Notes under the pieces: generated by a model
Database searches by the model: none
What the model saw: the letters and a program-made list of their open reading frames with translations, nothing else
What the model was told of the DNA's origin: nothing
Translations under genes and position numbers: made by a program
DNA from: Escherichia phage phiKP26
Sequence record: KC579452
Strand: one strand, 5' to 3'
Length of the DNA: 47,285 bases
In this document: positions 9,098-46,961 of the stretch, piece by piece
Numbering within the stretch: position 1 is the stretch's first letter
Layout: every line of letters begins with the position of its first letter

Positions 9098-10543
9098 ATG
9101 GCTTACACAGAAATTGCTATGGCAGTAGGGAATTCACCTGAAATCTTAGCCAGGANCGTAAAAGTGATGATGTCATCAGGCTTTCAGCCATATGGTGATG
9201 TGCAGATGCTAAGCGGCACCCTCTTTGGCATGAAGATGGCGAAAGGAACAACAAACAACGTTGAAGACTTCATGGTTACATCCGACACCACAATTCAGGG
9301 GCTAGTTAACAGGGTTAACCGATATCTAGCGCAGGGCTGGAAAAGGTTTGGCAATGCTCACTTCGAGGATGGCGCTTATATTTCAGCTCTGGCTAAAGGT
9401 GATTTTGCAAGTGATGAAGNAGGGGGTTCAGGTGAAGCAGGTCCACAAGGTCCGGTTGGTCCGCAGGGTCCAGCAGGTCCCGCAGGCGAAGCTGGTCCGC
9501 AAGGCCCTCAAGGTCCAACTGGTGCAACTGGCCCAGCAGGTGCGGCAGGCGCCAAAGGTGACACTGGTCCGGCAGGCCCTGCAGGCCCGCAAGGTCCTCA
9601 AGGCGAGACTGGAGAAGCTGGTCCACAGGGTCCTATGGGCCCAACAGGTGCAACAGGTCCGGCTGGCCCAAAAGGTGATAAAGGTGATGCAGGTCCAGTT
9701 GGTCCGGCAGGCTTGACATTCCGTGGGGTGTACGACGCAGCGACAGCTTACGTTAAAGATGATGTTGTTACATTCAATAACTCCAGCTGGTTTGCTACCA
9801 CTGCTGTTACCGGAGAGAATCCAGATGTTAGCGATTCCTGGGAATTGCTGGCTGCACAAGGCGCCCCTGGCCCACAAGGAGCAACCGGTCCAGCAGGCCC
9901 GACTGGCCCAGCAGGCCCGGCTGGCATTCAAGGTCCTCAGGGAGAAAGAGGCCTTCAGGGTGAGCAGGGTCCGACAGGTCCGCAAGGCTTGCAAGGTGCA
10001 GCAGGTGCAGTCGGGCCTCAAGGCCCAGCAGGTCCTCAGGGTGAGCCAGGAATACAGGGTCCTGTTGGCCCTCAAGGTCCAATTGGCCCTAAAGGCGATA
10101 AGGGAGACCCGGGAATATCAAGAACCTTCATGAAAGTTAAANCATCGCCTGATGTTGGCACTAATCATATGTTAAGACTACCAGCTCCTCTTAACAACCT
10201 ATCTGTTGGTATAAGGCTTGATTCAACAGTGCTTTTTAGCATTAGAGCCTGGATTGATGAGGGAAGCACTGCCAGGAACATAAGAGGTAATATTGAGGGC
10301 TTCAATAATACAGATAACTACTTCAATACAACAGTAAGGACAGCAATATCTTCATCTTCCGTAACTGGAACAGCATTGGTTACTGGCATTGGTGAATTTC
10401 AAAGAATAAGGCCATATGTTTTTAGCTTTTATGAAACCACAACAGGAACGGCGTGGAGAGTAACAATAAATCTATTTACAGTCGGTTATGTTGTGAGCGA
10501 CAATCAAGACCTGTGTATAGAAGTTGTAAGGCTTGATGCATAA
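9098..10543 (+). CDS. collagen-like repeat protein (two G-X-Y blocks, globular N- and C-terminal domains)
   Basis: 481 aa; two long Gly-X-Y runs ([17 protein letters not shown]...) separated by a ~45-aa non-collagen linker; C-terminal beta-rich domain. Confidence 0.8.
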
Positions 10544-14691: not shown

Positions 14692-14697
14692 CAATCA

Positions 14698-14721
14698 AGC
14701 CCCTTCACAGGGGCTTTTTTN
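14698..14721 (+). terminator. rho-independent terminator
   Basis: agcccct-tcac-aggggct hairpin followed by a T6 run. Confidence 0.7.
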
Positions 14722-15141: not shown

Positions 15142-15396
15142 ATGCGGCGTTCCGATTACGAAGATGAGGAGCCAGAGGAGTTACACTTCGATGATGACAT
15201 GATGCTGGCATGGACTGTTTATCAGGCAGCTTCAACTCAATGGCGTGTAGGTATGAACGGCGCTACCGGAATAGATTATTCAGTACTCCCTTTCCTCTTT
15301 GATGTGTATAATGTCAAGGACAAAGAGATGACTTTAAATGACTTGCGAATACTGGAGTGCAAAGCACTTGAGATGATGCAAGTAAGGCAAAANTAA
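15142..15396 (+). CDS. tail assembly chaperone extension (gpT-like, probably made as a -1 frameshift G-T fusion)
   Basis: The -1 frame is open from ~15067 through 15396, overlapping the end of the G-like ORF; no canonical slippery heptamer seen. Confidence 0.4.
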   Translation: MRRSDYEDEEPEELHFDDDMMLAWTVYQAASTQWRVGMNGATGIDYSVLPFLFDVYNVKDKEMTLNDLRILECKALEMMQVRQX

Positions 15397-15430
15397 CCTC
15401 CCTTTGTGGAGGTTTTTTNATGGAGGTTAC

Positions 15431-18400
15431 ATGGCAGAATTTGCAGGTATCACACTTGGCGTTGACGTTCGCCAGGTTGACCAGGGCACAAAGTCCCTGC
15501 AAGANTTTAAACGTGCCAATGAACAGGCGGCAGCTGGAGTTAGCGAGTTCGTTAATGCTGAGCTGGTTGCGAAGAATCAGGCTCGCGACACTGCAAGGTA
15601 TCTTTCTGAGCAGAGAAGTGCTTTTCAGTCGCTTCAGTCTGCAATTGATCCAACAGCTTCAAAATTGCGAAAACTTCAAGATGCAGCAAGTTCTCTTGAT
15701 AAGGCCTTCTCCGCAGGGGTTGTTCCAGAGGCTGAGTTTTACAGGCTTGGTGAAGCATTAGAAACGCAAACAAATAGGTTAATAAGGTCTAGGTCAGCAT
15801 TAACTGAGGAGGGTAGGGCGGCTATAGAAGCTGCAAAAAATAAAGAGTCCGCTGAGAGGCAAGCGCAATCATTTATTAGGTCGCTTCAAGCGCAGGCTGA
15901 TGCAGCGACATTAAGTAGGGATGAGTTCTTAAAGTTAAGGGCGGCACAGCTTGGAGTTAGCGATCAGGCAGCACCAATAATAGATAGAATAACACAGGCA
16001 TCAAGTAACAATACTAACGCTATAGCAAATCAAAGTAGGGCGTTTCAGGCGGCTGGGATATCGGCAGGTCAGTACAATCAGGCCTTAAGGTTCCTTCCTG
16101 TACAGATCAATGATATCACCAGCTCGATTGCTAACGGTATGCCTTTATTTATGGTGCTTACCCAGCAAATACCGCAGATTACAGATTCATTTGGTGGATT
16201 TTCAAATACATTATCAGCTGCGCAAGGTGCAGTTATAGATTATGTATCATCAATAGGAGAGCTGAGAAGTTCATTTGCTGATGTTAAGACTCTTGGTGAT
16301 GAGGCTATCTTAAGGTTTGGTCGTGCTGCAACTATATTTGGTGGCGCGATAGTTGCTTCATTAGCTGTTCTTGGTAAAGCCGCTTACGACTCATTTATTG
16401 AGGTTAGGCAACTTAATAACGCAATAATTGAAACTGGAAGGTCGTCGACTTTATCAGTTGCCGCTATCAAGGATTACGCTGATCAGCTAAATGAAACATC
16501 AAGGGCAACAAAAGGTTCTATTGGTGACATTTACCAGTCGCTAGTATCAAACGGAAGGCTTACTGTTAGTCAGATTAACTTAATCGCTAAGTCTGTTGCT
16601 AACCTTTCAGCTGTTAGTTCAAGGTCTGCGGAATCAATAATATCTGACTTTGATAAGATAGCAAAAGATCCAGTTAAGGGGCTGATAGAGTTAGATAAGC
16701 AATTTAACTTNCTTAGCGAAGGGCAGTTGACCCTAGTTAACAACCTAAANGAAACGGAAGGGCAAACAGCAGCAGTAACAGCAGCTTTAGAAATATTTGC
16801 AGCTAGAAATGAGTCAGTTACAAAGCAGATTGAAGGCTCGCTTACACCTCTTGAATTGGCTTGGGGCGATTTCCGTAAGTTCGTTTCAGACACATGGGAT
16901 GCTATAGGTGACAGGACTATAGGAGCTCTAAACCTATTTACTGACGTTATAGCTGCGACTATTGAGCGAATAAGACTGATAATTGGCACTGGCGACAAGC
17001 TAATAAATGATTTCGTAATACGCGGAATAGAGGCGTTACAAAAGATACCAGGAGCATCTGGCGTTGGTAATGGAATAGCCGAACAACTAAGGAAGGATAA
17101 TGACGCAATAGAAAAGGAAAACATAAGGCTAGCTAAATCTATCGCTGATAGGGATGCAAGGGTTCGCAGGGGCGAGACTGGTTACTTGAGTGTTGGAGAG
17201 GGTTCAGAAAGTCAAACTGGAACTTCTGATAGAGATTCAGAATCAAGAAGAAAGGCTTTGGCCGATGAGATTAAAGCAATTGAGGAGAGAAGTAAAAAGA
17301 CAAAATCTGGAGCAAAAGAAGAGAGGGATTTGACTATAAGTTATGAGTCTGGCGTTCTAGCTCTTCAGGCTCAGCTTAAGGTTCTTCAGGAGCACCGCCA
17401 GATTAGTGATGTTATCAGTAACGAACGCAAGCAGCTTTTTGCGGAGGAAGCTAAGTTTGCAATCCTTAATGAAAGGCTTGCAGACGGAACCATCACAAAG
17501 CAACAGCGATCATTACTGTTGCAGCAGGATAAAATCTTAGGACTTGCTCGCGAGAAGGCTGAGATTGGCGACCAGATTGTGCTGCAAGAAAGGGCCAATA
17601 AACTTCTTGATGACAACATCAAGAAGACTCGGCAGATTAACGCTGAAGCGGCATCAATTAGTGTTGGAGCAGGATTATCTCAGCGCGAAGCGGAAAGGCG
17701 GCGTGAGTTGGCGGCGCTAGAAGCCCAGCAAATTTCTAAAGGTGGCTCCGTAGATGACACTGACTTCCAGGCTTTACTTCAGGCTCGTCAGAATTTCTAC
17801 AATCAGGAAGATGCATTACGTGGTAACTGGCTGGCTGGCGTTAAATCTGCGTTTGCTGAGACGGCTGATGAATTGGCAAACTTTAATCAGATTGGTTCCG
17901 AGCTAGCCATGAGTGCCTTTAACGGATTGACTGACCAGATAACAAACCTGGTAACTACTGGAGAAGCTAGCTTCCGTGAGTTTACCGCATCGATTCTGAA
18001 GCAGATTGCACGCATTGCAACGCAGCTACTTTTAATTAAGGCGATTGAATCAACCATCTCCAGTTTTGGCGGTAGTGGTGGTGCAATTGGCTCTATTGGT
18101 AGCGCATTTGGTTTCGCTTCTGGCGGTTATACTGGAAACGGTGGTAAGTACGAGCCAGCTGGCACGGTGCATAAAGGTGAATTCGTCTTTACGAAGGAGG
18201 CAACCTCAAGGATTGGCGTTGATAACCTTTATAAGTTAATGCGCGGATACGCAAATGGTGGAGTGGTTGGTGCTGGTCCTGGCTATGCGACTGGCGGGCT
18301 TGTTGGTGGAAGTAACGTTAATGTTGGTGGAGTGAATGTTACCGTTCAGACAGGTCTTGGCGGTGGTGGCGGTAATGACGCTAAACAGTTAGAATCTGGT

Positions 18401-18484
18401 ATCAGGGTTATCATCGCGGAAGAGATTACTCAGTCCTTCCAGCAGGGCGGAACGGCTTACCAGTTCTTGCGAGGTTATAGTTAA
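15431..18484 (+). CDS. tail tape measure protein
   Basis: ~1017 aa, largely helical and Ala/Gln/Leu-rich, with a Gly-rich C-terminal segment; canonical position. Confidence 0.85.
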   Translation: MAEFAGITLGVDVRQVDQGTKSLQXFKRANEQAAAGVSEFVNAELVAKNQARDTARYLSEQRSAFQSLQSAIDPTASKLRKLQDAASSLDKAFSAGVVPEAEFYRLGEALETQTNRLIRSRSALTEEGRAAIEAAKNKESAERQAQSFIRSLQAQADAATLSRDEFLKLRAAQLGVSDQAAPIIDRITQASSNNTNAIANQSRAFQAAGISAGQYNQALRFLPVQINDITSSIANGMPLFMVLTQQIPQITDSFGGFSNTLSAAQGAVIDYVSSIGELRSSFADVKTLGDEAILRFGRAATIFGGAIVASLAVLGKAAYDSFIEVRQLNNAIIETGRSSTLSVAAIKDYADQLNETSRATKGSIGDIYQSLVSNGRLTVSQINLIAKSVANLSAVSSRSAESIISDFDKIAKDPVKGLIELDKQFNXLSEGQLTLVNNLXETEGQTAAVTAALEIFAARNESVTKQIEGSLTPLELAWGDFRKFVSDTWDAIGDRTIGALNLFTDVIAATIERIRLIIGTGDKLINDFVIRGIEALQKIPGASGVGNGIAEQLRKDNDAIEKENIRLAKSIADRDARVRRGETGYLSVGEGSESQTGTSDRDSESRRKALADEIKAIEERSKKTKSGAKEERDLTISYESGVLALQAQLKVLQEHRQISDVISNERKQLFAEEAKFAILNERLADGTITKQQRSLLLQQDKILGLAREKAEIGDQIVLQERANKLLDDNIKKTRQINAEAASISVGAGLSQREAERRRELAALEAQQISKGGSVDDTDFQALLQARQNFYNQEDALRGNWLAGVKSAFAETADELANFNQIGSELAMSAFNGLTDQITNLVTTGEASFREFTASILKQIARIATQLLLIKAIESTISSFGGSGGAIGSIGSAFGFASGGYTGNGGKYEPAGTVHKGEFVFTKEATSRIGVDNLYKLMRGYANGGVVGAGPGYATGGLVGGSNVNVGGVNVTVQTGLGGGGGNDAKQLESGIRVIIAEEITQSFQQGGTAYQFLRGYS

Positions 18485-18515
18485 TAAATGGGGCTTCGGC
18501 CCCTAAGGATTTTAA

Positions 18516-18866
18516 ATGGCATTAGATACTTTTACATGGTGTACCCAAATTCAAGGTGGATCAGCAAACTTTACTAACGCGAATAACGTTAGGGTTGTTA
18601 GCTTTGGCAATGGCTACGAGCAGCGCGGAACCGGAGGTTACAGGACCAATAAGCGCACCTACAACATGACCTACACCAACACCAGCTGGAAGGAAGTGTT
18701 GGACTTCTGCTTTGCTCACATCATCACCCCGTTCGCATGGACAACTCCGCAGGGTGAGCTTAAGCTGTTTGTTGTAGCTCAGGACAGTATCAGCGTCACA
18801 CCAAACACCAAGGACGTGCAGACTGTATCAATGCAGTTTGTAGAAGTTTTCACATCTATGCAGTAA
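18516..18866 (+). CDS. minor tail protein (lambda gpM-like)
   Basis: 116-aa ORF directly after the tape measure gene; M-L-K-I-J order follows. Confidence 0.6.
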   Translation: MALDTFTWCTQIQGGSANFTNANNVRVVSFGNGYEQRGTGGYRTNKRTYNMTYTNTSWKEVLDFCFAHIITPFAWTTPQGELKLFVVAQDSISVTPNTKDVQTVSMQFVEVFTSMQ

Positions 18867-18867
18867 A

Positions 18868-18910
18868 TAGCACTAATTGCTAAACAGAAATACCAAGGAA
18901 GGTTTACAAT
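18868..18910 (+). promoter_or_regulatory. palindrome/-10 promoter-like element (tagcactaattgcta-N22-tacaat) inside the tail module
   Basis: Family member directly upstream of the moron-like ORF 18930-19154. Confidence 0.4.
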
Positions 18911-18929
18911 TAAAAANCTTAANCAAGAG

Positions 18930-19154
18930 GTGATTGATATGAAAATTAATTTGCTTTGCACAAATGCTGAAGTTGGTGTCTTTGATTTAAATGTTGGTCA
19001 AACTTATGTGGCATACTTCAATGATGATTATGGTCATTATGAACTTTCTGATGAAGGTTTTTCTTATGAGTTAAGCGAGGTTAGAGGTGCTCCTTTGACT
19101 TTCTACTGTAAATCTTTTAGTGGTGGATTGGTGACATTCATTAAAGTAANCTAA
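18930..19154 (+). CDS. hypothetical protein (moron-like insert in the tail-tip module)
   Basis: 74-aa ORF with its own palindrome/TACAAT element upstream, an RBS (aagaggtg) and a hairpin plus T-run downstream. Confidence 0.5.
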   Translation: MIDMKINLLCTNAEVGVFDLNVGQTYVAYFNDDYGHYELSDEGFSYELSEVRGAPLTFYCKSFSGGLVTFIKVX

Positions 19155-19173
19155 GGCCCTACGGGGTCTTTTN
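19154..19173 (+). terminator. rho-independent terminator candidate
   Basis: aggccc-tac-ggggtct hairpin followed by a T-run. Confidence 0.5.
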
Positions 19174-19187
19174 ATTGGAGAAATATT

Positions 19188-19952
19188 ATGGCTACGCCAT
19201 TGAGCACTAAGTTTGAGAATCAATTACAAAGCTTGTTCCCTGGTGAGGTTGTCACGTTGATTGAGGTTGACGGAGGAAAGTTTGGTGCACCAGTTTACCG
19301 ATTTCATGGGGAGAATATCAGCTATACCCCAGAAGAAATCATGATGGCGCAATCAACAGGCCAGCCACTACCAGCAAAGACAATTACCTTCCGTGGGCAA
19401 GAGTACGGAGCAAGGCCTTTCGGTATTCAGGGGATCAATATGACCTCTGATGGCAAGGCAAATAAGGTGACTCTAGTCGTATCCAACGTAGACCAGAATA
19501 TATCTGCGCTTATCCGCACTTACAATGGACTTGTTCAGGCCAAAGTTACTATCTGGATCACCCTCCGCGAGAATATTAACGAAGATGGCACCATTGCTGA
19601 TGGGGATTACCGCAAGCTGGTTTACTTCATTGAGCGACCTAAGCAGGTTGATTACAATACAGCCTCATTTGAACTAACTAGCCCAATGGATATGGATGGT
19701 ATTTACATTCCAGCGCGACTTGTTCAGTCTGTTTGTTATTGGGCACAGCGAGGGCTTTACCGATCAGGTAATGGATGTAACTACATGGGTACTCGATATT
19801 TCGATAAGGACAACGCGCCTGTGACTGACCCATCGCAAGACTTCTGTGCCGGAACGGTTCGTGCGTGCAAGCTAAGGTTCGGAGAAANTAATCAGTTAGA
19901 CTTTGGTGGTTGCGCTGCTGCAAGCCTGCAAGCTAAAGCCAACCAAAACTAA
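19188..19952 (+). CDS. minor tail protein (lambda gpL-like)
   Basis: 254 aa; position and size in the M-L-K-I-J series; C-terminal Cys cluster. Confidence 0.6.
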   Translation: MATPLSTKFENQLQSLFPGEVVTLIEVDGGKFGAPVYRFHGENISYTPEEIMMAQSTGQPLPAKTITFRGQEYGARPFGIQGINMTSDGKANKVTLVVSNVDQNISALIRTYNGLVQAKVTIWITLRENINEDGTIADGDYRKLVYFIERPKQVDYNTASFELTSPMDMDGIYIPARLVQSVCYWAQRGLYRSGNGCNYMGTRYFDKDNAPVTDPSQDFCAGTVRACKLRFGEXNQLDFGGCAAASLQAKANQN

Positions 19953-19961
19953 GGAGAGGTA

Positions 19962-20708
19962 ATGTTAACGCCTAAAGTTAAGATCGAAATATTTCGCCAC
20001 GCCAACGAGGTTTACCCGCAAGAATCTTGCGGGGTTGTAACTCAGAAGGGGATGGCGCAGAAGTATCACAGGATTACCAACGTATCCAAAACACCAGAGC
20101 AATCATTCATTCTCGACCCAATGGAATTCATGGAGATTTCGGACAATGAAAGCGTTGTTTATGTTGTACATTCACATACTGGTGATGGCGCTACTACTAG
20201 GCCAAGCGCAGCTGATATTTGCAGCTGCAATGAGTGCGATCTGCCTTATGTTATTGTTTCTATACCTGAAGGGGACTTGCGGATTATTCAGCCAGAAAAG
20301 ATGCCGCTTGCTGGTCGCCCATGGGGTCTTGGCAGCTTCGACTGCTGGGGTTTGGTTATGGAATTTCACAAGCTACACGGTGTTAAGCTTAACGATTATC
20401 GCGTAGATTATCAGTGGTGGACCAATGAATACCCTGACAATATCTACGATGATAATTGGGAGTTAGAAGGGTTCGAATTAGTCAGAAGCAATGATATTCC
20501 AATTGGCTCAATGGTTATGATGCAGATTCAGAGCGAGAAGACCAACCACGCCGCCATATACATTGGTGACAATAAAATCCTACACCATTTATATGGTAAG
20601 ATGAGTAAGGTTGATTTGTACGGCGATTACTATCGTGAGCGGACTGTACGAATCGTAAGGCATAAAGATTTACCGGAGGATGCTGGTTATGACCCAGAAC
20701 GTGATTGA
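19962..20708 (+). CDS. tail assembly protein K-like (JAB/MPN metalloprotease motif plus NlpC/P60-like domain)
   Basis: 248 aa; HSHTGDGATTRPSAAD matches the JAMM HxH...S..D motif; Cys/His-containing C-terminal half. Confidence 0.7.
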   Translation: MLTPKVKIEIFRHANEVYPQESCGVVTQKGMAQKYHRITNVSKTPEQSFILDPMEFMEISDNESVVYVVHSHTGDGATTRPSAADICSCNECDLPYVIVSIPEGDLRIIQPEKMPLAGRPWGLGSFDCWGLVMEFHKLHGVKLNDYRVDYQWWTNEYPDNIYDDNWELEGFELVRSNDIPIGSMVMMQIQSEKTNHAAIYIGDNKILHHLYGKMSKVDLYGDYYRERTVRIVRHKDLPEDAGYDPERD

Positions 20709-21255
20709 TGTTAAGTTGGGATTAGGTTTGGGCAGGAGGTTTGGAAAGCTACATAAGCTTTGCGTTAAAACGGTTCCAGAGGCAATGCGGGCGCTGTCTG
20801 TAAACATCCCTGAGTTTAAAGATTTCATGCGTAGCCATGTGGGCCAGAACACAAGGTTTGCTGTATTCGTTGACGGTAAGAATGTTAACGAGCACAAGAT
20901 TAATGACCTTGAGACTGTGCGTGAAATTAGGATTATGCCAATCCCGCAAGGTCGAAAATCTGGCGGCTTATTCCAGACCATCCTTGGAGGTGTACTTTTG
21001 GTGGCATCATACTTCTTTCCTGTTCTTTTGCCAGTGGCTGTAGGCCTCCTTGCTGGTGGAGTGGCTCAGTTATTGGCGCCACAAGCTACAGGATTGAATG
21101 ACCAGGCATCACAAACAAGCAACCGAGCATCATACGCATTCGGCTCAGCAGTAAATACAATTGCGGCAGGCAACCCCGTTTGCTTACCTTATGGATATCG
21201 AACTGTTGGTGGTGCTGTATTTAGTGCAGGCTCGTATGCAGAAGACATTAGTTAA
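20680..21255 (+). CDS. tail assembly protein I-like
   Basis: 191 aa overlapping the K-like gene; hydrophobic Gly/Ala-rich C-terminal segment typical of gpI. Confidence 0.6.
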   Translation: MLVMTQNVIDVKLGLGLGRRFGKLHKLCVKTVPEAMRALSVNIPEFKDFMRSHVGQNTRFAVFVDGKNVNEHKINDLETVREIRIMPIPQGRKSGGLFQTILGGVLLVASYFFPVLLPVAVGLLAGGVAQLLAPQATGLNDQASQTSNRASYAFGSAVNTIAAGNPVCLPYGYRTVGGAVFSAGSYAEDIS

Positions 21256-21262
21256 AATCACA

Positions 21263-21286
21263 ACCCGCCTAGTGCGGGTTTTTTAT
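21263..21286 (+). terminator. rho-independent terminator
   Basis: cccgc-ctagt-gcggg hairpin followed by a T-run. Confidence 0.65.
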
Positions 21287-21335
21287 TTAGTGTAGAATGG
21301 CACAAATGGTTAAACAAACAACGAGGTTATATGAT

Positions 21336-24300
21336 ATGGCCGATTTGCCAAAGATTTATGGAAGCAAGGGTGGTAGCAAGAAGCCGCACACACCTGTAGA
21401 GCAAGAAGATAACCTGATTTCACTAAACAAGATTAAGGTGCTACTGGCTGTAGCTGATGGAGAGGTTGATTCTAGTTTCTCGCTCAAGGATGTTTACCTT
21501 GCTGACGTTCCGGTGCAAAACCAGGATAACTCATTCAACTATGAAGGTGTTACGGCAGAGTTTAGGTCTGGTACTCAGTCGCAGGATTACATCGCAGGAC
21601 TAGATGGCGCAGCTTCAGAGATTCAGGTTAGTCGTGAAATCAATAATGACACACCTTATATCATCGCAGTCAACAACAGTCAGCTATCAGCAATTCGAGT
21701 CAAGCTGTTCTGGCCTCGACTCGTTAAGCAAGAAGAGAATGGAGATTTAAATGGCACAACATGTGAATATGCAATCGATTTATCAGTTAATGGCTCAGCG
21801 TACACTGAGTATATCAGAGGCGTGGCTAACGGTAAAACTACAACAGGTTACGACCGCAGTATCAGGGTTAACTTACCAGCCGAGTTTAGCAGCGCTCTTG
21901 TTCGTATTAGGAAGTTAACGCCAGACTCAACAAATAGCACCCTGGTTAACGGGATGCAGATCACAACCTATCAGGAAGTAATCGATGCTAAATTCCGCTA
22001 CCCTCTTACGGCACTTGTTTACGTGGAGTTCAGTTCTGACCTGTTCCCTAACGGGATCCCAACTATAGCCATTAAGAAAAAGTGGAAACTTATCCGCGTA
22101 CCGACAAACTACAATCCAGAGACAAGGGCTTATAGCGGCACATGGAATGGAACTTTTAAAATGGCATGGTCTGACAACCCGGCCTGGGTTTTATATGATC
22201 TGGTGGTTAGTCAGCGCTACGGATTGGATCAGCGAGAGCTTGGTGTAGAGATTGATAAGTGGGGTCTGTATGAAGCAGCGCAATTCTGCGACCAGATGGT
22301 TCCTGATGGTAAGGGTGGAATGGAGCCGCGATATACTTGTAACGTTGTCATTCAGCAGAAAGTGGAAGCGTATCAGCTTATTCGTGACATCTGTTCTATC
22401 TTCCGCGGTTTAACCTTCTATGATGGTGAGCAAATCGGGATTGTTGTAGACAGGCCGCGCCAGCCAAGCTATGTGTTCACTAATGATAACGTTGTTGATG
22501 GATTGTTTAACAGGACATTCTCTAGCGACAAGAGCCTTTACACGACAGCCAACGTTCAGTTTGATGACGAGCAGAACAACTACCAGCAGGATGTCGAGCC
22601 AGTATTCGACTTAGAAGCAACACGCCGATTTGGTTACAACCCTGTAGACTTGACTGCAATTGGCTGCGTAAGGCGAAGCGAGGCTAACCGTCGCGGGCGT
22701 TGGTTGCTGAAAACAAACCTTCGCAGTGAAACGGTAACGTTCACAACTGGCCTCGAAGGCATGATTCCTATGATTGGTGATGTAATTGCCGTTAATGACC
22801 AGGCTTGGTCAAGCAACTACACATTAAACCTTTCGGGTCGAATTGTTGAAGCTACAGGTTTGCAGGTGTTCGTGCCATTCGCTATTGATGCTGACCCTGG
22901 CGACAGGATTTTAATCAACAAGCCAGATGGGAGCCCAGAGTACAGGACTATCGCTTCAGTATCTGCCGATAAGTTGACGCTTGAACTGAATACAGCATTC
23001 AGCTTCACACCTCAGCCGGATACGGTATTTGCAATCGACAAGCAGAATCTGGCGTTGCAGCAATACGTTGTGACAGGAATTCAAAAAGCAAACACGGACG
23101 GCGAGGATTCATTCCAGTACAGCATCACTGCGGTGCAGTATGACCCGAACAAGTATGACGAGATTGACTATGGTGTGAATATTGACGACAGGCCAACAAG
23201 TATCGTTGACCCTGACAGGATTTTACCACCTGAAAATATCACCGTTACTAGTTACAGCAAGGTAGTTCAGGGCTTAAGCGTTGAGACGATGGTTATTGGT
23301 TACGACAAGGTGCAGTATGCGAAAACATACAACGTACAGTGGCGCAAGAATAACGGCAACTGGATTAACGTACCTGAGACAGCTAATACCGAGGTTGATA
23401 TTGAAGGCATTTACGCTGGCATCTACGACGTCAGGGTTCGCGCCGTAACTGACCAGAAATCAGTGTCGGCATGGTCAGATATCACGACAGTTAGCCTGAC
23501 TGGCAAGATTGGGGAACCTTCGGAGCCGCCTGTAATTACGGCTTCTGATGATGAGGTTTTCGGGATTAGGGTTAAGTGGGGCTTCCCTACTGACTCAGCT
23601 GATACCGCTTACACCGAGCTTCAGCAGGTTCCTGATAATGGTGACGGAACATATACACCGGAGAACGCGTCACTGCTTACGCTGGTTCCGTATCCTCAAT
23701 ACGAATATTGGCACACCACTCTACCAGCAGGTAACGTGAGGTGGTACAGGGCCAGGATTATTGACAGGATAGGTAACGTATCTCCGTGGACTGATTTTGT
23801 CAGAGGTATGGCATCCGATGATGTAAGTGCGATCATTGGTGACATCAAGGTTGATATCGAAAACTCTGATGGTTACAAGTATCTTCTCCAGAACGCCATT
23901 GATGCAAATACTGACATCCAGAATCAGGCCGAAGCTATAATCGAGAACGCCCTGGCAAATGATACTGACGTACGCGTTATGACAAAGGAGAATCTTAACA
24001 GGAAGGCGGAATATCGCCAGGCAGTAAGTTTGATTGCTGATGAAACTCAGGCCCGTGTGGACGCTCTCACGCAGCTTAAAGCGCAGATTGATGATGAGAT
24101 TGTTGGTCAGATTACGACAATTGAAACCGCACTTGCTACGGAGACCGAAGCCAGGGCTACAGCTGATACTCAATTAAGCTCAAGGCTTGGTGATAACGAG
24201 GCGGCTTTGAATCAGAAGCTTGACTCTTATGCCACGGTCGAAGGTGTTGGTGTTCAGTACGGCGTTAAGCTCGGCCTGAAGTACAATGGGGTTGAGTACG

Positions 24301-24722
24301 GCGCTGGAATGAGCATGGAGTTAACTGGTAGTGGTGGAAATGTTCGTAGTCAGTTTATTTTTGATGCTAACAGGTTCGCAATCAGTAACGGCATTAGTTC
24401 TGGTTCCGGTCAGTGGTCGCTACCTTTCGTTGTGGAGAATAACCAGGTGTTCATTCAGAGCGCGGTGATTCAGGATGGTTCAATTACTAACGCGAAGATT
24501 GGTAACAGGATTCAATCAAACAACTATGTTGCTGGTAGTGCTGGTTGGGCAATTGATAAATCTGGTTTTGCTGAGTTAAGTAACGCTACCGTTCGCGGTA
24601 GTTTGTACGCTAACAATGGTAACTTCGCGTTTAACGGAACCAACAATACTGTCGTAATAAACAATAACGGCATAACTGTTAATTTACCAAATGGAGGTAG
24701 GGTAGTGGTTGGAGTATGGTAA
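21336..24722 (+). CDS. tail tip / host specificity protein (lambda gpJ-like)
   Basis: ~1128 aa; N-terminus MADLPKIYGSKGGSKKPHTPVEQEDNL resembles J-family N-termini; position after the I-like gene. Confidence 0.8.
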   Translation: MADLPKIYGSKGGSKKPHTPVEQEDNLISLNKIKVLLAVADGEVDSSFSLKDVYLADVPVQNQDNSFNYEGVTAEFRSGTQSQDYIAGLDGAASEIQVSREINNDTPYIIAVNNSQLSAIRVKLFWPRLVKQEENGDLNGTTCEYAIDLSVNGSAYTEYIRGVANGKTTTGYDRSIRVNLPAEFSSALVRIRKLTPDSTNSTLVNGMQITTYQEVIDAKFRYPLTALVYVEFSSDLFPNGIPTIAIKKKWKLIRVPTNYNPETRAYSGTWNGTFKMAWSDNPAWVLYDLVVSQRYGLDQRELGVEIDKWGLYEAAQFCDQMVPDGKGGMEPRYTCNVVIQQKVEAYQLIRDICSIFRGLTFYDGEQIGIVVDRPRQPSYVFTNDNVVDGLFNRTFSSDKSLYTTANVQFDDEQNNYQQDVEPVFDLEATRRFGYNPVDLTAIGCVRRSEANRRGRWLLKTNLRSETVTFTTGLEGMIPMIGDVIAVNDQAWSSNYTLNLSGRIVEATGLQVFVPFAIDADPGDRILINKPDGSPEYRTIASVSADKLTLELNTAFSFTPQPDTVFAIDKQNLALQQYVVTGIQKANTDGEDSFQYSITAVQYDPNKYDEIDYGVNIDDRPTSIVDPDRILPPENITVTSYSKVVQGLSVETMVIGYDKVQYAKTYNVQWRKNNGNWINVPETANTEVDIEGIYAGIYDVRVRAVTDQKSVSAWSDITTVSLTGKIGEPSEPPVITASDDEVFGIRVKWGFPTDSADTAYTELQQVPDNGDGTYTPENASLLTLVPYPQYEYWHTTLPAGNVRWYRARIIDRIGNVSPWTDFVRGMASDDVSAIIGDIKVDIENSDGYKYLLQNAIDANTDIQNQAEAIIENALANDTDVRVMTKENLNRKAEYRQAVSLIADETQARVDALTQLKAQIDDEIVGQITTIETALATETEARATADTQLSSRLGDNEAALNQKLDSYATVEGVGVQYGVKLGLKYNGVEYGAGMSMELTGSGGNVRSQFIFDANRFAISNGISSGSGQWSLPFVVENNQVFIQSAVIQDGSITNAKIGNRIQSNNYVAGSAGWAIDKSGFAELSNATVRGSLYANNGNFAFNGTNNTVVINNNGITVNLPNGGRVVVGVW

Positions 24723-24728
24723 ATGATT

Positions 24729-24749
24729 AAGCCCCTTTCGGGGCTTTTN
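24729..24749. terminator. bidirectional terminator between convergent genes
   Basis: aagcccc-tttc-ggggctt hairpin followed by T-run; lies between the J-like stop and the probable stop of the minus-strand gene. Confidence 0.65.
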
Positions 24750-24752
24750 CTT

Positions 24753-25724
24753 TNAGTAGAAGTTGGGAATAAATGGAAGTGCCATTGATATGTTTGTATC
24801 AAATGGGAATTGCGCGCCAGTTTGAGTTGAATAGTTACCTATAACAGTGCCTGGGACGGCTCTAACTGAACCTCCAGACATGCAAACACCCTTGTATCGT
24901 AAGTTATTATATCCACCAGTGACTCTAGTTGTCGCTCCGCATCTAAGTATTGGGAAGAACCCACCATTCACCGACTGGTAACCATTATTAATCTGCATAA
25001 ATCCACTTAGAACAAATGGCCTCCTGACGCTAGAGAAAACTATCTGCCCAGCGCTGTTTGATATCGTTAAACCCGGACCAGCTACTGGAGGTGTATTATT
25101 GAAAATAACTAACTGAACGTAAGTACTTGCAGCAACATCATCAATCCCATTGTACGTTATATCCCTACACCATATCGTACTACCATCACTTTCAAGTGAT
25201 ACGTTTNGGTTATCCCATTTACCAAANGGAATGCCGCCAACTGGCAATGATGCAGAGCCATTAACCTGGATGCCACCAACCCAAGCAGCAGTCATTAATC
25301 TGGAATTACTTGATATCGCTGTAAAGTCAGTCGAGTTCTCAACAAGGACACCGGGGCTTGATTGTGATGATGCTGGTAAAATCTCAAAGCACTGACCGCC
25401 AAACTGCAATATGCGACCATTAGCGCCGTTAAAGTTACTTAATGTAATCCTTCNAACCCCATCATTAACCTTCGAGAACCCATTCATGTAATAAACTTCT
25501 GGTATAACATCATATGCATCAACATAAACAGCCTGAGTTGGCAGGCAGAATGCTGTTGAGCCAGGAGTCATAGTCAGACCGAAATCCCATGATGATGCTG
25601 GTGAGCTTAACCCGCTAGTGTTTATTGAACCAGTCACGGCTGGAACTCTCAAGCCAGCTGTAATTTCCATTGCTGGCCTTCCGTCATTCAAATCTATCAA
25701 GATACCTTGAGGCATTATTTCCAC
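24753..25724 (-). CDS. Ser/Gly/Asn-rich beta-rich protein; candidate receptor-binding or tail-fibre accessory protein (function uncertain)
   Basis: ~323 aa; start overlaps the lipoprotein stop. Stop placed at a TNA codon at 24753-24755 just before the terminator; the track end at 24684 reads through an N. Confidence 0.5.
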
Positions 25725-25960
25725 TCCTTTGAGCCGTGATCTGCAACTGAGCCGCCGTAGCCTCCACCAACCTTTGACTCAATGCCAGCATAACGAATAT
25801 CAACCTCTCCAGCTGCAACAATAACACCACCTTTCCACTTAGCTACGCAAACATCACCCGCCTGAGTCGCACACCATCCGTCAGGGCGCGGACCAGAAGA
25901 ACAACCTACCGTCATGATTGCTGCTGCTGCGATGATTGCTGATTTGATGAAGTTAGTCAT
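25715..25960 (-). CDS. small lipoprotein, Cor/Llp-like superinfection-exclusion candidate
   Basis: 81 aa from the ATG at 25960 with RBS (aaggaa): [22 protein letters not shown]..., i.e. signal peptide plus lipobox-like Cys; Gly-rich mature part. Confidence 0.55.
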
Positions 25961-26010
25961 TTTGTATTCCTTAGTCAGTATGTTTCGTTTCGATGGAGTA
26001 ACTATAGCAA

Positions 26011-26054
26011 AGGCTTCTGCTGTAGTCTTTAGCAAATCGTGCTATTTTATATAC
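26011..26054 (-). promoter_or_regulatory. palindrome/-10 promoter-like element driving the lipoprotein operon
   Basis: Minus-strand reading: tagcacgatttgcta-N23-tatagt-tactccatcgaaacgaaa, then RBS and ATG at 25960. Confidence 0.45.
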
Positions 26055-43439: not shown

Positions 43440-43483
43440 AATATACCCGCCGAAGCGGGTAGTGTCATTAGCAAAAAGTGCTA
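43440..43483 (-). promoter_or_regulatory. palindrome/-10 promoter-like element with embedded GC hairpin (minus strand)
   Basis: Minus reading: tagcactttttgcta, spacer containing cccgc-ttcg-gcggg, then tatatt; small membrane ORF downstream. Confidence 0.4.
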
Positions 43484-46389: not shown

Positions 46390-46961
46390 TGTTTGATTTC
46401 AACGAGGATAAGTTAACTGATGACCAGGTGATGGAAGTCGCCAGGCAAGATAACCTGCCGCCACTTCGTGTGGCAATCAGTACTAATGGATACCGCCAAT
46501 CATTCAATTTCTGGCCCAGCGCCGAAGAGATGCTGTGCGTCAAGTTGAGCTACAAATACGGTGTCGTAGTTAGCAGGATTAGCCGCCATGGCTGGAATGG
46601 AGTGGTTGGCATTCGATCTCTATACGAGGCAATNCGAAATGTCCAGCCATTCGTCGGGCGCGAAGGGATTATGCATGACCTGACAATTAACATCATCCCA
46701 GAACTACAAGAGNCGGGAATTGTTNGCCTCATTGGCGATAAGATTTATGTTCATCCGGCCCTGGTTGAGATGGATAAGGACGACGTGCAAAACTGGTGCA
46801 GTCAGTGCCGATCCGACGTGCCACGCTCAAACTACGTGCCACCGCAAACAACAATCCATGGCTATAATGCCGATGAGGTGGAGAAGGCCATACAGTTCTA
46901 CCGGAAAGCGAAAGCTCTCCGAAAGGGGAAATTTAAAAAAAATGAACCATCTATCAATTAA
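46389..46961 (+). CDS. short paralogue of the 529-aa P-loop protein, lacking the ATPase core; 3' end runs into low-quality sequence
   Basis: N-terminus MFDFNEDKLTDDQVMEVARQDNLPPLRVAISTNGYRQS matches the N-terminus of 41400-42989; a later block (VVGIRSLYEA...LIGDKIYVHPAL) matches its C-terminus. In the cleaner repeat copy the ORF ends at 473. Confidence 0.5.
   Translation: MFDFNEDKLTDDQVMEVARQDNLPPLRVAISTNGYRQSFNFWPSAEEMLCVKLSYKYGVVVSRISRHGWNGVVGIRSLYEAXRNVQPFVGREGIMHDLTINIIPELQEXGIVXLIGDKIYVHPALVEMDKDDVQNWCSQCRSDVPRSNYVPPQTTIHGYNADEVEKAIQFYRKAKALRKGKFKKNEPSIN
46542..46922. repeat. Direct repeat copy B (matches 66-446)
   Basis: Same as copy A; after 46922 the sequence degrades instead of continuing as 447 onward. 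Confidence 0.85.

Follow-up and report, generated by a model that had tools for sequence, protein, structure and literature searches.

Small promoter-bearing accessory genes account for many counter-defence and host-takeover functions of phages. Lambdoid morons, which Juhala et al. in 2000 and Hendrix et al. in 2000 are said to have described, are reportedly units of a promoter, an ORF and a terminator located between genes that are adjacent in relatives. In T4-type phages, regulatory cassettes named PeSL (promoter-early stem-loop) were reportedly described by Arbiol, Comeau and Krisch in 2010. Gp54 of phage Bas11 is, to our knowledge, one of few small phage proteins whose structure has been solved and whose immune sensor is known. 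CapRelSJ46, a fused toxin-antitoxin, is activated by Gp54, which binds its antitoxin domain (Zhang et al., Nature 2024, PMC11578894). Gp54 is non-essential and its native function is not known (PMC11578894). Here we compare these systems with a small insert in the tail operon of Escherichia phage phiKP26.

The window is the whole stretch of phiKP26 DNA that was analyzed (KC579452, 47,285 nucleotides), with 149 N's scattered across it. In sequence comparison the 18400-19300 region is 99.6% identical to Escherichia phage C119 (KT825490; Drexlerviridae, Rogunavirinae, Rogunavirus), and the window phage can be placed on sequence grounds among the T1-like E. coli phages of Rogunavirus. Drexlerviridae (T1-like) phages are virulent and have no prophage state. 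The window and the C119 record are not collinear base for base; the offset between them changes from 7787 to 7729, 7222 and 6932 across the replication and early region, which implies that several hundred bases differ. A tRNA-Arg gene (anticodon CCT) is found at 2921-2996, as known from related Rogunaviruses. A direct repeat of 300 nt with 95% identity was detected near the window ends (78-377 and 46554-46853) and could be a terminal redundancy, a circular-permutation overlap or a duplicated early region. Around 20 overlapping repeats with a 9-nt period, encoding collagen-like Gly-X-Y triplets, were detected at 9428-10089 in the equivalent of C119_3, an ORF between the head protease and decoration genes and the major capsid gene. 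The GenBank name of the C119 equivalent, "putative DNA polymerase I", looks like a misannotation.

The insert studied here is surrounded by tail genes which, judged by their family matches, form a lambda-like tail-tip block M-L-K-I-J (Table 1). The gpM-like gene on its left is intact, and in alignment its C-terminus is identical to that of relatives without the insert.

Table 1. Positions of the cassette, its parts and the surrounding tail genes in the window.
Feature	Position	Strand	Details
Tape measure protein (TMP) gene	15404-18484		
gpM-like minor tail protein gene, left flank	18516-18866	+	PF05939, E=1.5e-18; phrog_14; ends ...FTSMQ-stop
Promoter-like element of the AATAGCAC-N3-TTGCTAAA...TAnnnT family	18866-18910	+	palindrome TAGCA-CTAAT-TGCTA 18868-18882; weak -35 TAAACA 18881-18886; -10 TACAAT 18905-18910
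Inserted cassette, between gpM-like stop codon and resident hairpin	18868-19150	+	283 nt, 32% GC
Shine-Dalgarno site AAGAGGTGA	18925-18933	+	5 nt before ATG
71-aa ORF, C119_16 equivalent	18939-19154	+	last codon AAC (ANC 19149-19151), stop 19152-19154
Intrinsic-terminator-like hairpin and T-run of M-L junction, backbone	19153-19176	+	-12.7 kcal/mol; conserved in AHP42 and phiEB49
gpL-like minor tail protein gene, right flank	19188-19952	+	PF05100, E=8e-45
gpK-like gene	19962-20708		JAB and NlpC/P60
gpI-like gene	20680-21255		
gpJ-like gene	21297-24722		
Family sites of the promoter-like element in the window	458, 1574, 11583, 26044(-), 28405, 33890, 36286, 36971, 37657, 39212, 43285(-), 43483(-), 44437(-), 45272(-)		

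The best explanation of this locus, which we consider probable, is a horizontally acquired, dispensable, moron-like accessory cassette placed exactly between the gpM-like stop codon and the resident M-L terminator. The cassette consists of a promoter-like element, a Shine-Dalgarno site and one 71-aa ORF. A junction query was built by removing the insert and was matched against phage records, of which the 60 best were scored. The insert-deleted junction was a single-piece match in 49 of these 60 records, and the query was split in two pieces in seven phages only. Phages with an uninterrupted M-L junction include phiJLA23, JK06, AHP42, AKS96, the Opt-719 group, Sd1 and e4/1c; phiJLA23 is the closest relative, with junction flanks 97% identical. 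In the alignment with AHP42 and phiEB49, the M stop codon directly joins the hairpin (...ATGCAGTAAACTAAGACCC-hairpin). The hexamer AGTAAA is present at both insert edges (18862-18867 and 19145-19150) and the exact breakpoints are therefore ambiguous by about 6 nt. The last codon of the ORF spans the boundary between insert and backbone, and its stop codon lies in the backbone.

Carriers of the ORF in the searched collection are C119, UDF157lw, BECP10 and Rogue1 only, the copy in Rogue1 being frameshifted. Phage phiKP26 is itself outside this collection; its protein (UniProt M4QMX5) was found in BFVD and is 100% identical over 70 modelled residues. At the identical nucleotide position AHP24, AHS24 and Sf12 possess another ORF of 64 aa (type B), with the same promoter type upstream, and both ORF types at this site are intact in most copies. 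The insert has a foreign composition compared to the surrounding genome: its 32% GC compares with 47% in the flanks and 44% in the genome and falls in the lowest 0.6% of 283-nt windows, and its GC3 is 24% versus 46-56% in the flanks.

The hairpin and T-run downstream of the ORF (AAGGCCC-UACG-GGGUCUU followed by UUNAUU; -12.7 kcal/mol, z = -2.8) are also kept in the insert-less AHP42 and phiEB49, which indicates that the terminator is resident and was not brought by the cassette. A rho-independent terminator is annotated at this place in AHP24 and AHP42. The hairpin in C119 has one G.U pair and is weaker than that in AHP42 (-17.3 kcal/mol). GC-rich hairpins were also observed 3' of the major tail, chaperone, TMP, gpI and gpJ genes (14697-14716, 15395-15414, 18490-18503, 21262-21280 and 24729-24746), most of them followed by a T-run. 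Terminator-like or attenuator structures punctuate the late operon, and the M-L hairpin is one of them.

A preliminary description of this DNA had proposed a moron-like insertion between the gpM-like and gpL-like genes, and it agrees with the variable presence, foreign composition and non-structural promoter class of the insert. Presence at the M-L junction varies even among near-identical relatives, and most relatives lack the ORF rather than keeping it as an integral tail gene. The description of a complete autonomous unit ending in a hairpin and T-run holds in part: the promoter-like element and the ORF come with the insert, while the hairpin and T-run, present as described, belong to the backbone. 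Similar to lambdoid morons, the cassette shows a precise insertion between genes adjacent in relatives, a promoter-like element, deviant composition and variable presence, and it has no role in the surrounding module. It differs from them in that the host phage is virulent, the terminator is the resident one of the M-L junction and the promoter is putative. Since the phage is virulent, we use the term moron-like and do not consider the cassette a classical prophage moron.

Intergenic insertions at neighbouring tail-tip junctions are also known in the same phage group as HNH homing-endonuclease genes, which were located between L and K in AHP42 (L003, 2785-3330) and Sf12 (L006, 2844-3140) and between TMP and M in phiEB49 (L004, 1657-2136). 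The HNH gene of AHP42 is preceded by a partly similar annotated promoter (AGCACTTTTTGTTAA...TATAAT). In contrast to these inserts, the 71-aa ORF has no nuclease or any other Pfam domain. With HNH genes at adjacent junctions in relatives, the tail-tip block can be regarded as a hot spot for insertions in these phages.

The palindrome and TACAAT element noted in the preliminary description was found and belongs to a sequence family with at least 14 full-length copies in the window. With up to 3 mismatches allowed, the 19-mer ATAGCACTAATTGCTAAAC was matched 10 times, against an expectation of 0.01. The family can be written as AATAGCAC-N3-TTGCTAAA-N~18-TAnnnT, with the TAnnnT register the same in all 14 copies, and its box has the form AATAGCAC-(GAA/TTT)-TTGCTAAA(A)C ... 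TAnnnT. The distance from TTGCTA to the -10 is fixed at 22 nt, and a Shine-Dalgarno site with an ATG follows 71-84 nt downstream. The cassette element aligns in register with 13 other copies in the window and about 20 in Bas11, and lacks a leader motif, CATCGAAAC, present in many family copies. Mapped on the C119 annotation, other copies are located upstream of small hypothetical genes, a recombination protein gene, the helicase region and a lipoprotein gene, and one variant copy is placed after the capsid gene; none of the other window copies precedes terminase, portal, capsid or tail genes in this annotation. We regard the cassette element, from its sequence, as a putative early-type promoter.

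A sigma-70 scan gave a score of 9/12 for TAAACA-18-TACAAT, and sigma-70-like matches were not enriched over shuffles in the cassette region. Because this consensus score is weak, support for a promoter comes from conservation of the family instead. A sigma-54 promoter was considered, given the likeness of TAGCAC/TTGC to TGGCAC-N5-TTGC, and rejected, as every copy has an N3 spacer, which is 2 nt too short. TTGCTA was also rejected as a -35 hexamer: its constant distance of 22 nt from the -10 is too large for sigma-70, and a weak hexamer, TAAA(C/A)N, is found where a -35 should be. The weak -35 and the distant TTGCTA suggest that a protein factor may act at the upstream box or be required. Class II activators bind near -42, and the palindrome is centred near this position.

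Bas11 belongs to the Tempevirinae, and one of its family copies is located directly upstream of gene 54 (L009); by sequence, the promoter-like family is common to Rogunavirinae and Tempevirinae. In escape mutants of Bas11, gene 54 has mutations just 5' of it, "probably within its promoter", and these upstream mutations lower the Gp54 level (Zhang et al., PMC11578894). When gene 54 was placed on pBR322 behind its own promoter, the protein was detectable in E. coli MG1655 (PMC11578894). These results lend indirect experimental support to the family as a promoter for host polymerase, and not to the copy at 18866-18910 specifically. We found no transcription-start study of Drexlerviridae in the literature, and longer motif strings of the AATAGCAC-N3-TTGCTAAA family were not found in the literature searched; the AHP24 paper gives promoters and terminators and does not describe this family. 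A pan-Drexlerviridae promoter family which travels with small ORFs thus appears to be new here, as we found no earlier description.

The layout of this family resembles that of PeSL cassettes. Both are repeated modules of early-promoter type, the one here putative and sometimes with a stem-loop in its spacer, placed before many small non-essential ORFs, and both accompany ORFs which differ between related genomes. The two have unrelated sequences and belong to different phage families; moreover, the cassette copy is in a late structural operon, while PeSL elements are in a hyperplastic early region. In the copies at 43483(-), 44437(-) and 11583(+), a GC-rich hairpin followed by T's was observed in the spacer between box and -10 (e.g. 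GCCCTTCGGGGCTTTTATTGTATATT). These terminator-like stem-loops nested inside some family promoters are reminiscent of the T4 PeSL elements. A lipoprotein-like ORF with a lipobox was observed at 25715-26035 (-), just past the gpJ-like gene and behind the family copy at 26044(-). This ORF is a candidate for a Cor-like exclusion gene, and would then be a further accessory unit beside the tail module.

The preliminary description proposed a ribosome-binding site and a 74-aa ORF at 18930-19154 with an acidic, aromatic-rich product. The site is present, as AAGAGGTGA, and the same motif, AGAGGTGATTG, also precedes the homologue in L011. An ORF starting at GTG 18930 does exist; however, the likely start is ATG 18939, giving 71 aa, as judged by the spacing from the ribosome-binding site, the GenBank CDS C119_16 and the start used by all homologues. 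The product is acidic and rich in aromatic residues as described (8.0 kDa, pI 4.4, 12 aromatic residues). Searched against Rfam, the stretch 18700-19300 returned nothing beyond one snoRNA hit at chance level (E=0.5).

Purifying selection acts on the ORF. Its dN/dS is 0.30 versus a 70%-identical copy in contig L007 and, for pairs with unsaturated dS, 0.22-0.37 versus homologues of 41-49% identity, and 16 residues are invariant over seven sequences, with homologues 41-92% identical in three genomic contexts. Close copies (L007, L012 and L013) are all at the M-L junction. Of two distant homologues, P0006 is encoded directly upstream of the small terminase subunit gene (terS) and P0007 between unrelated genes. 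Both are behind the same promoter type (AAAATAGCACTTTTTGTTAAAAC...TATAAT in L010 and TTTCGCACGAATTGCTAAAAC...GATATAT in L011), suggesting that promoter and ORF behave as one unit, and each of these cassettes ends in its own terminator. A further hit in the representative search, the 970-aa repeat protein P0008 (E=3e-5), was set aside as a probable match of beta-hairpins by composition. The family is rare, with five clusters among 5.8 billion and two further representatives among 1.84 billion, and no relatives were detected in the IMG/VR or JGI metagenome contig scans. Two frameshifted copies were identified, in Rogue1 and in metagenome contig L013, which suggests that the gene is dispensable, at least on some hosts. 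This rarity and the frameshifted copies together imply that any benefit of the ORF must be narrow or conditional.

The ORF matches phrog_29402, which has no assigned function. "Tailspike sialidase" is the product name on the phiKP26 (M4QMX5), C119, BECP10 and UDF157lw entries. We reject this label, as the protein has only 71 aa and no search supports it: no sialidase, glycosidase or tail-protein match was found in Pfam, PHROG functions or PDB sequences. It looks like a name propagated between records.

No signal peptide, membrane segment, Pfam domain or sequence relative in PDB was detected for the 71-aa protein. A lipoprotein signal was considered and rejected, the N-terminus MKINLLC being too short even though C7 is invariant. 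AlphaFold2 with a 5-sequence alignment gave an all-beta model (pLDDT 93, pTM 0.78), while two of five models were poor (pLDDT 45 and 37). The protein is predicted to be a six-stranded small beta-barrel, with strands at 2-10, 22-28, 33-38, 41-48, 54-58 and 64-69 and a long loop at 11-21. For the type B cassette protein, the model has pLDDT 73 and the order beta-beta-beta-beta-alpha-beta, with a helix where type A has strands; the two types share only a local BLASTP match (13/33 residues, E=0.003).

In the comparison by one program, the predicted barrel is likely to share its fold with Gp54 of Bas11 (9AXB). The 9AXB structure was released in 2024, presumably later than AlphaFold2 training, and the match would therefore not be memorised. 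The long loop between the first two predicted strands also fits the description of Gp54 (PMC11578894). A Foldseek search of PDB with the 71-aa model did not retrieve 9axb.

In contrast to this predicted likeness of fold, no sequence relationship to Gp54 (PF25180; PDB 9AXB/9ERV) is detectable. PF25180 has no match at E<=10 in the 71-aa protein, while Bas11 Gp54 scores 116 bits; hhalign of the two families gave a probability of 0.07%, and both phmmer versus PDB and tblastn of Gp54 versus the window were negative. We therefore do not assign the protein to PF25180, with Pfam, phmmer, hhalign and tblastn all negative. DUF7244 (PF23896) was also set aside as uninformative, its best score of 23 bits (P0007) being below the 27-bit cut-off. 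The genomic settings differ as well, gene 54 being in a leftward small-gene cluster and the 71-aa ORF in the tail operon. The Gp54 homologues of Bas10, Bas5, Bas8 and SECphi27 fail to activate CapRelSJ46 (PMC11578894). Since even close homologues of Gp54 are inactive on CapRel, trigger activity of the 71-aa protein cannot be assumed.

Several other readings of the locus can be weighed against these data. The ORF might be a selfish or neutral passenger, riding along without benefit to the phage and decaying while the element promotes recombination. Such a passenger would be consistent with the very narrow distribution, the absence from phiJLA23 and the frameshifted copies, but the low dN/dS across divergent copies, the residues kept invariant in three contexts and the confident prediction of a compact fold all argue against it, and we consider it unlikely. 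Selection on the ORF also weakens the proposal that the promoter is the selected part, with more or earlier L-K-I-J transcripts made by reading past a weakened terminator. The element does point into L-K-I-J and the hairpin in C119 is the weaker one; however, the ORF travels with the promoter in unrelated contexts and the site is filled by one or the other of two different ORFs, both of them mostly intact, which makes this a very improbable account of the insert.

The position of the ORF within the tail-tip block, on the same strand, and the tailspike name in GenBank would fit a protein accessory to the tail or its assembly, which would be produced together with those of the late tail genes and decorate or chaperone the tail tip in some phages. 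Yet the ORF is absent in phages with junction flanks 87-97% identical, Rogue1 is an isolated phage with a frameshifted copy, homologues are found outside tail modules, the promoter is of a non-structural class and the tailspike name is unsupported by any sialidase or tail family match. We find a tail role hardly credible. None of these readings matches the selection and mobility data as well as an accessory cassette.

For the accessory cassette we propose the following course of events. Acquisition probably took place by recombination at the junction of M stop codon and terminator, which is well supported, with the AGTAAA at the edges as microhomology. As expected from family membership of the element, host sigma-70 RNA polymerase would start about 7 nt past TACAAT (near 18917) early in infection, so that transcription of the cassette would precede that of the late tail operon and not depend on it. 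The transcript would mostly stop at the resident hairpin with its T-run and would thus be a monocistronic mRNA of about 250 nt. Its product would be a soluble acidic 8-kDa beta-barrel with a fold like that of Gp54 (Bas11) and would not be a tail component. By analogy, this barrel might bind a host or defence protein in the cytoplasm, where it would serve as inhibitor or decoy or be recognised by a defence sensor.

A wider and more tentative possibility is that the promoter element is a portable module across Drexlerviridae which, like PeSL elements, moves small ORFs from one genome or position to another, including into late structural operons, and that C119_16 and Gp54 (Bas11) are divergent members of a superfamily of defence-interacting beta-barrel proteins with a rare topology. 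We regard this combination as speculative. If true, the ORF would alter which hosts the phage can infect, and members of the superfamily would inhibit systems such as CapRel, serve as decoys for them or trigger them.

Accessory inserts that carry a promoter and separate conserved structural genes are a known phenomenon, and the ORF was already in GenBank under a wrong name; the present analysis corrects the propagated misannotation "tailspike sialidase". What we did not find described earlier, in addition to the promoter family, is the predicted Gp54-like fold of the C119_16-type protein. This predicted likeness points to a concrete assay with CapRel homologues or defence-system libraries. A natural experiment is available in near-isogenic phages, some of which have the insert and others not, and in which the copy can also be frameshifted or another ORF can take the same nucleotide position. 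The promoter family, common to Rogunavirinae and Tempevirinae and travelling with the ORF, could prove useful as a tag for non-structural accessory genes across Drexlerviridae.
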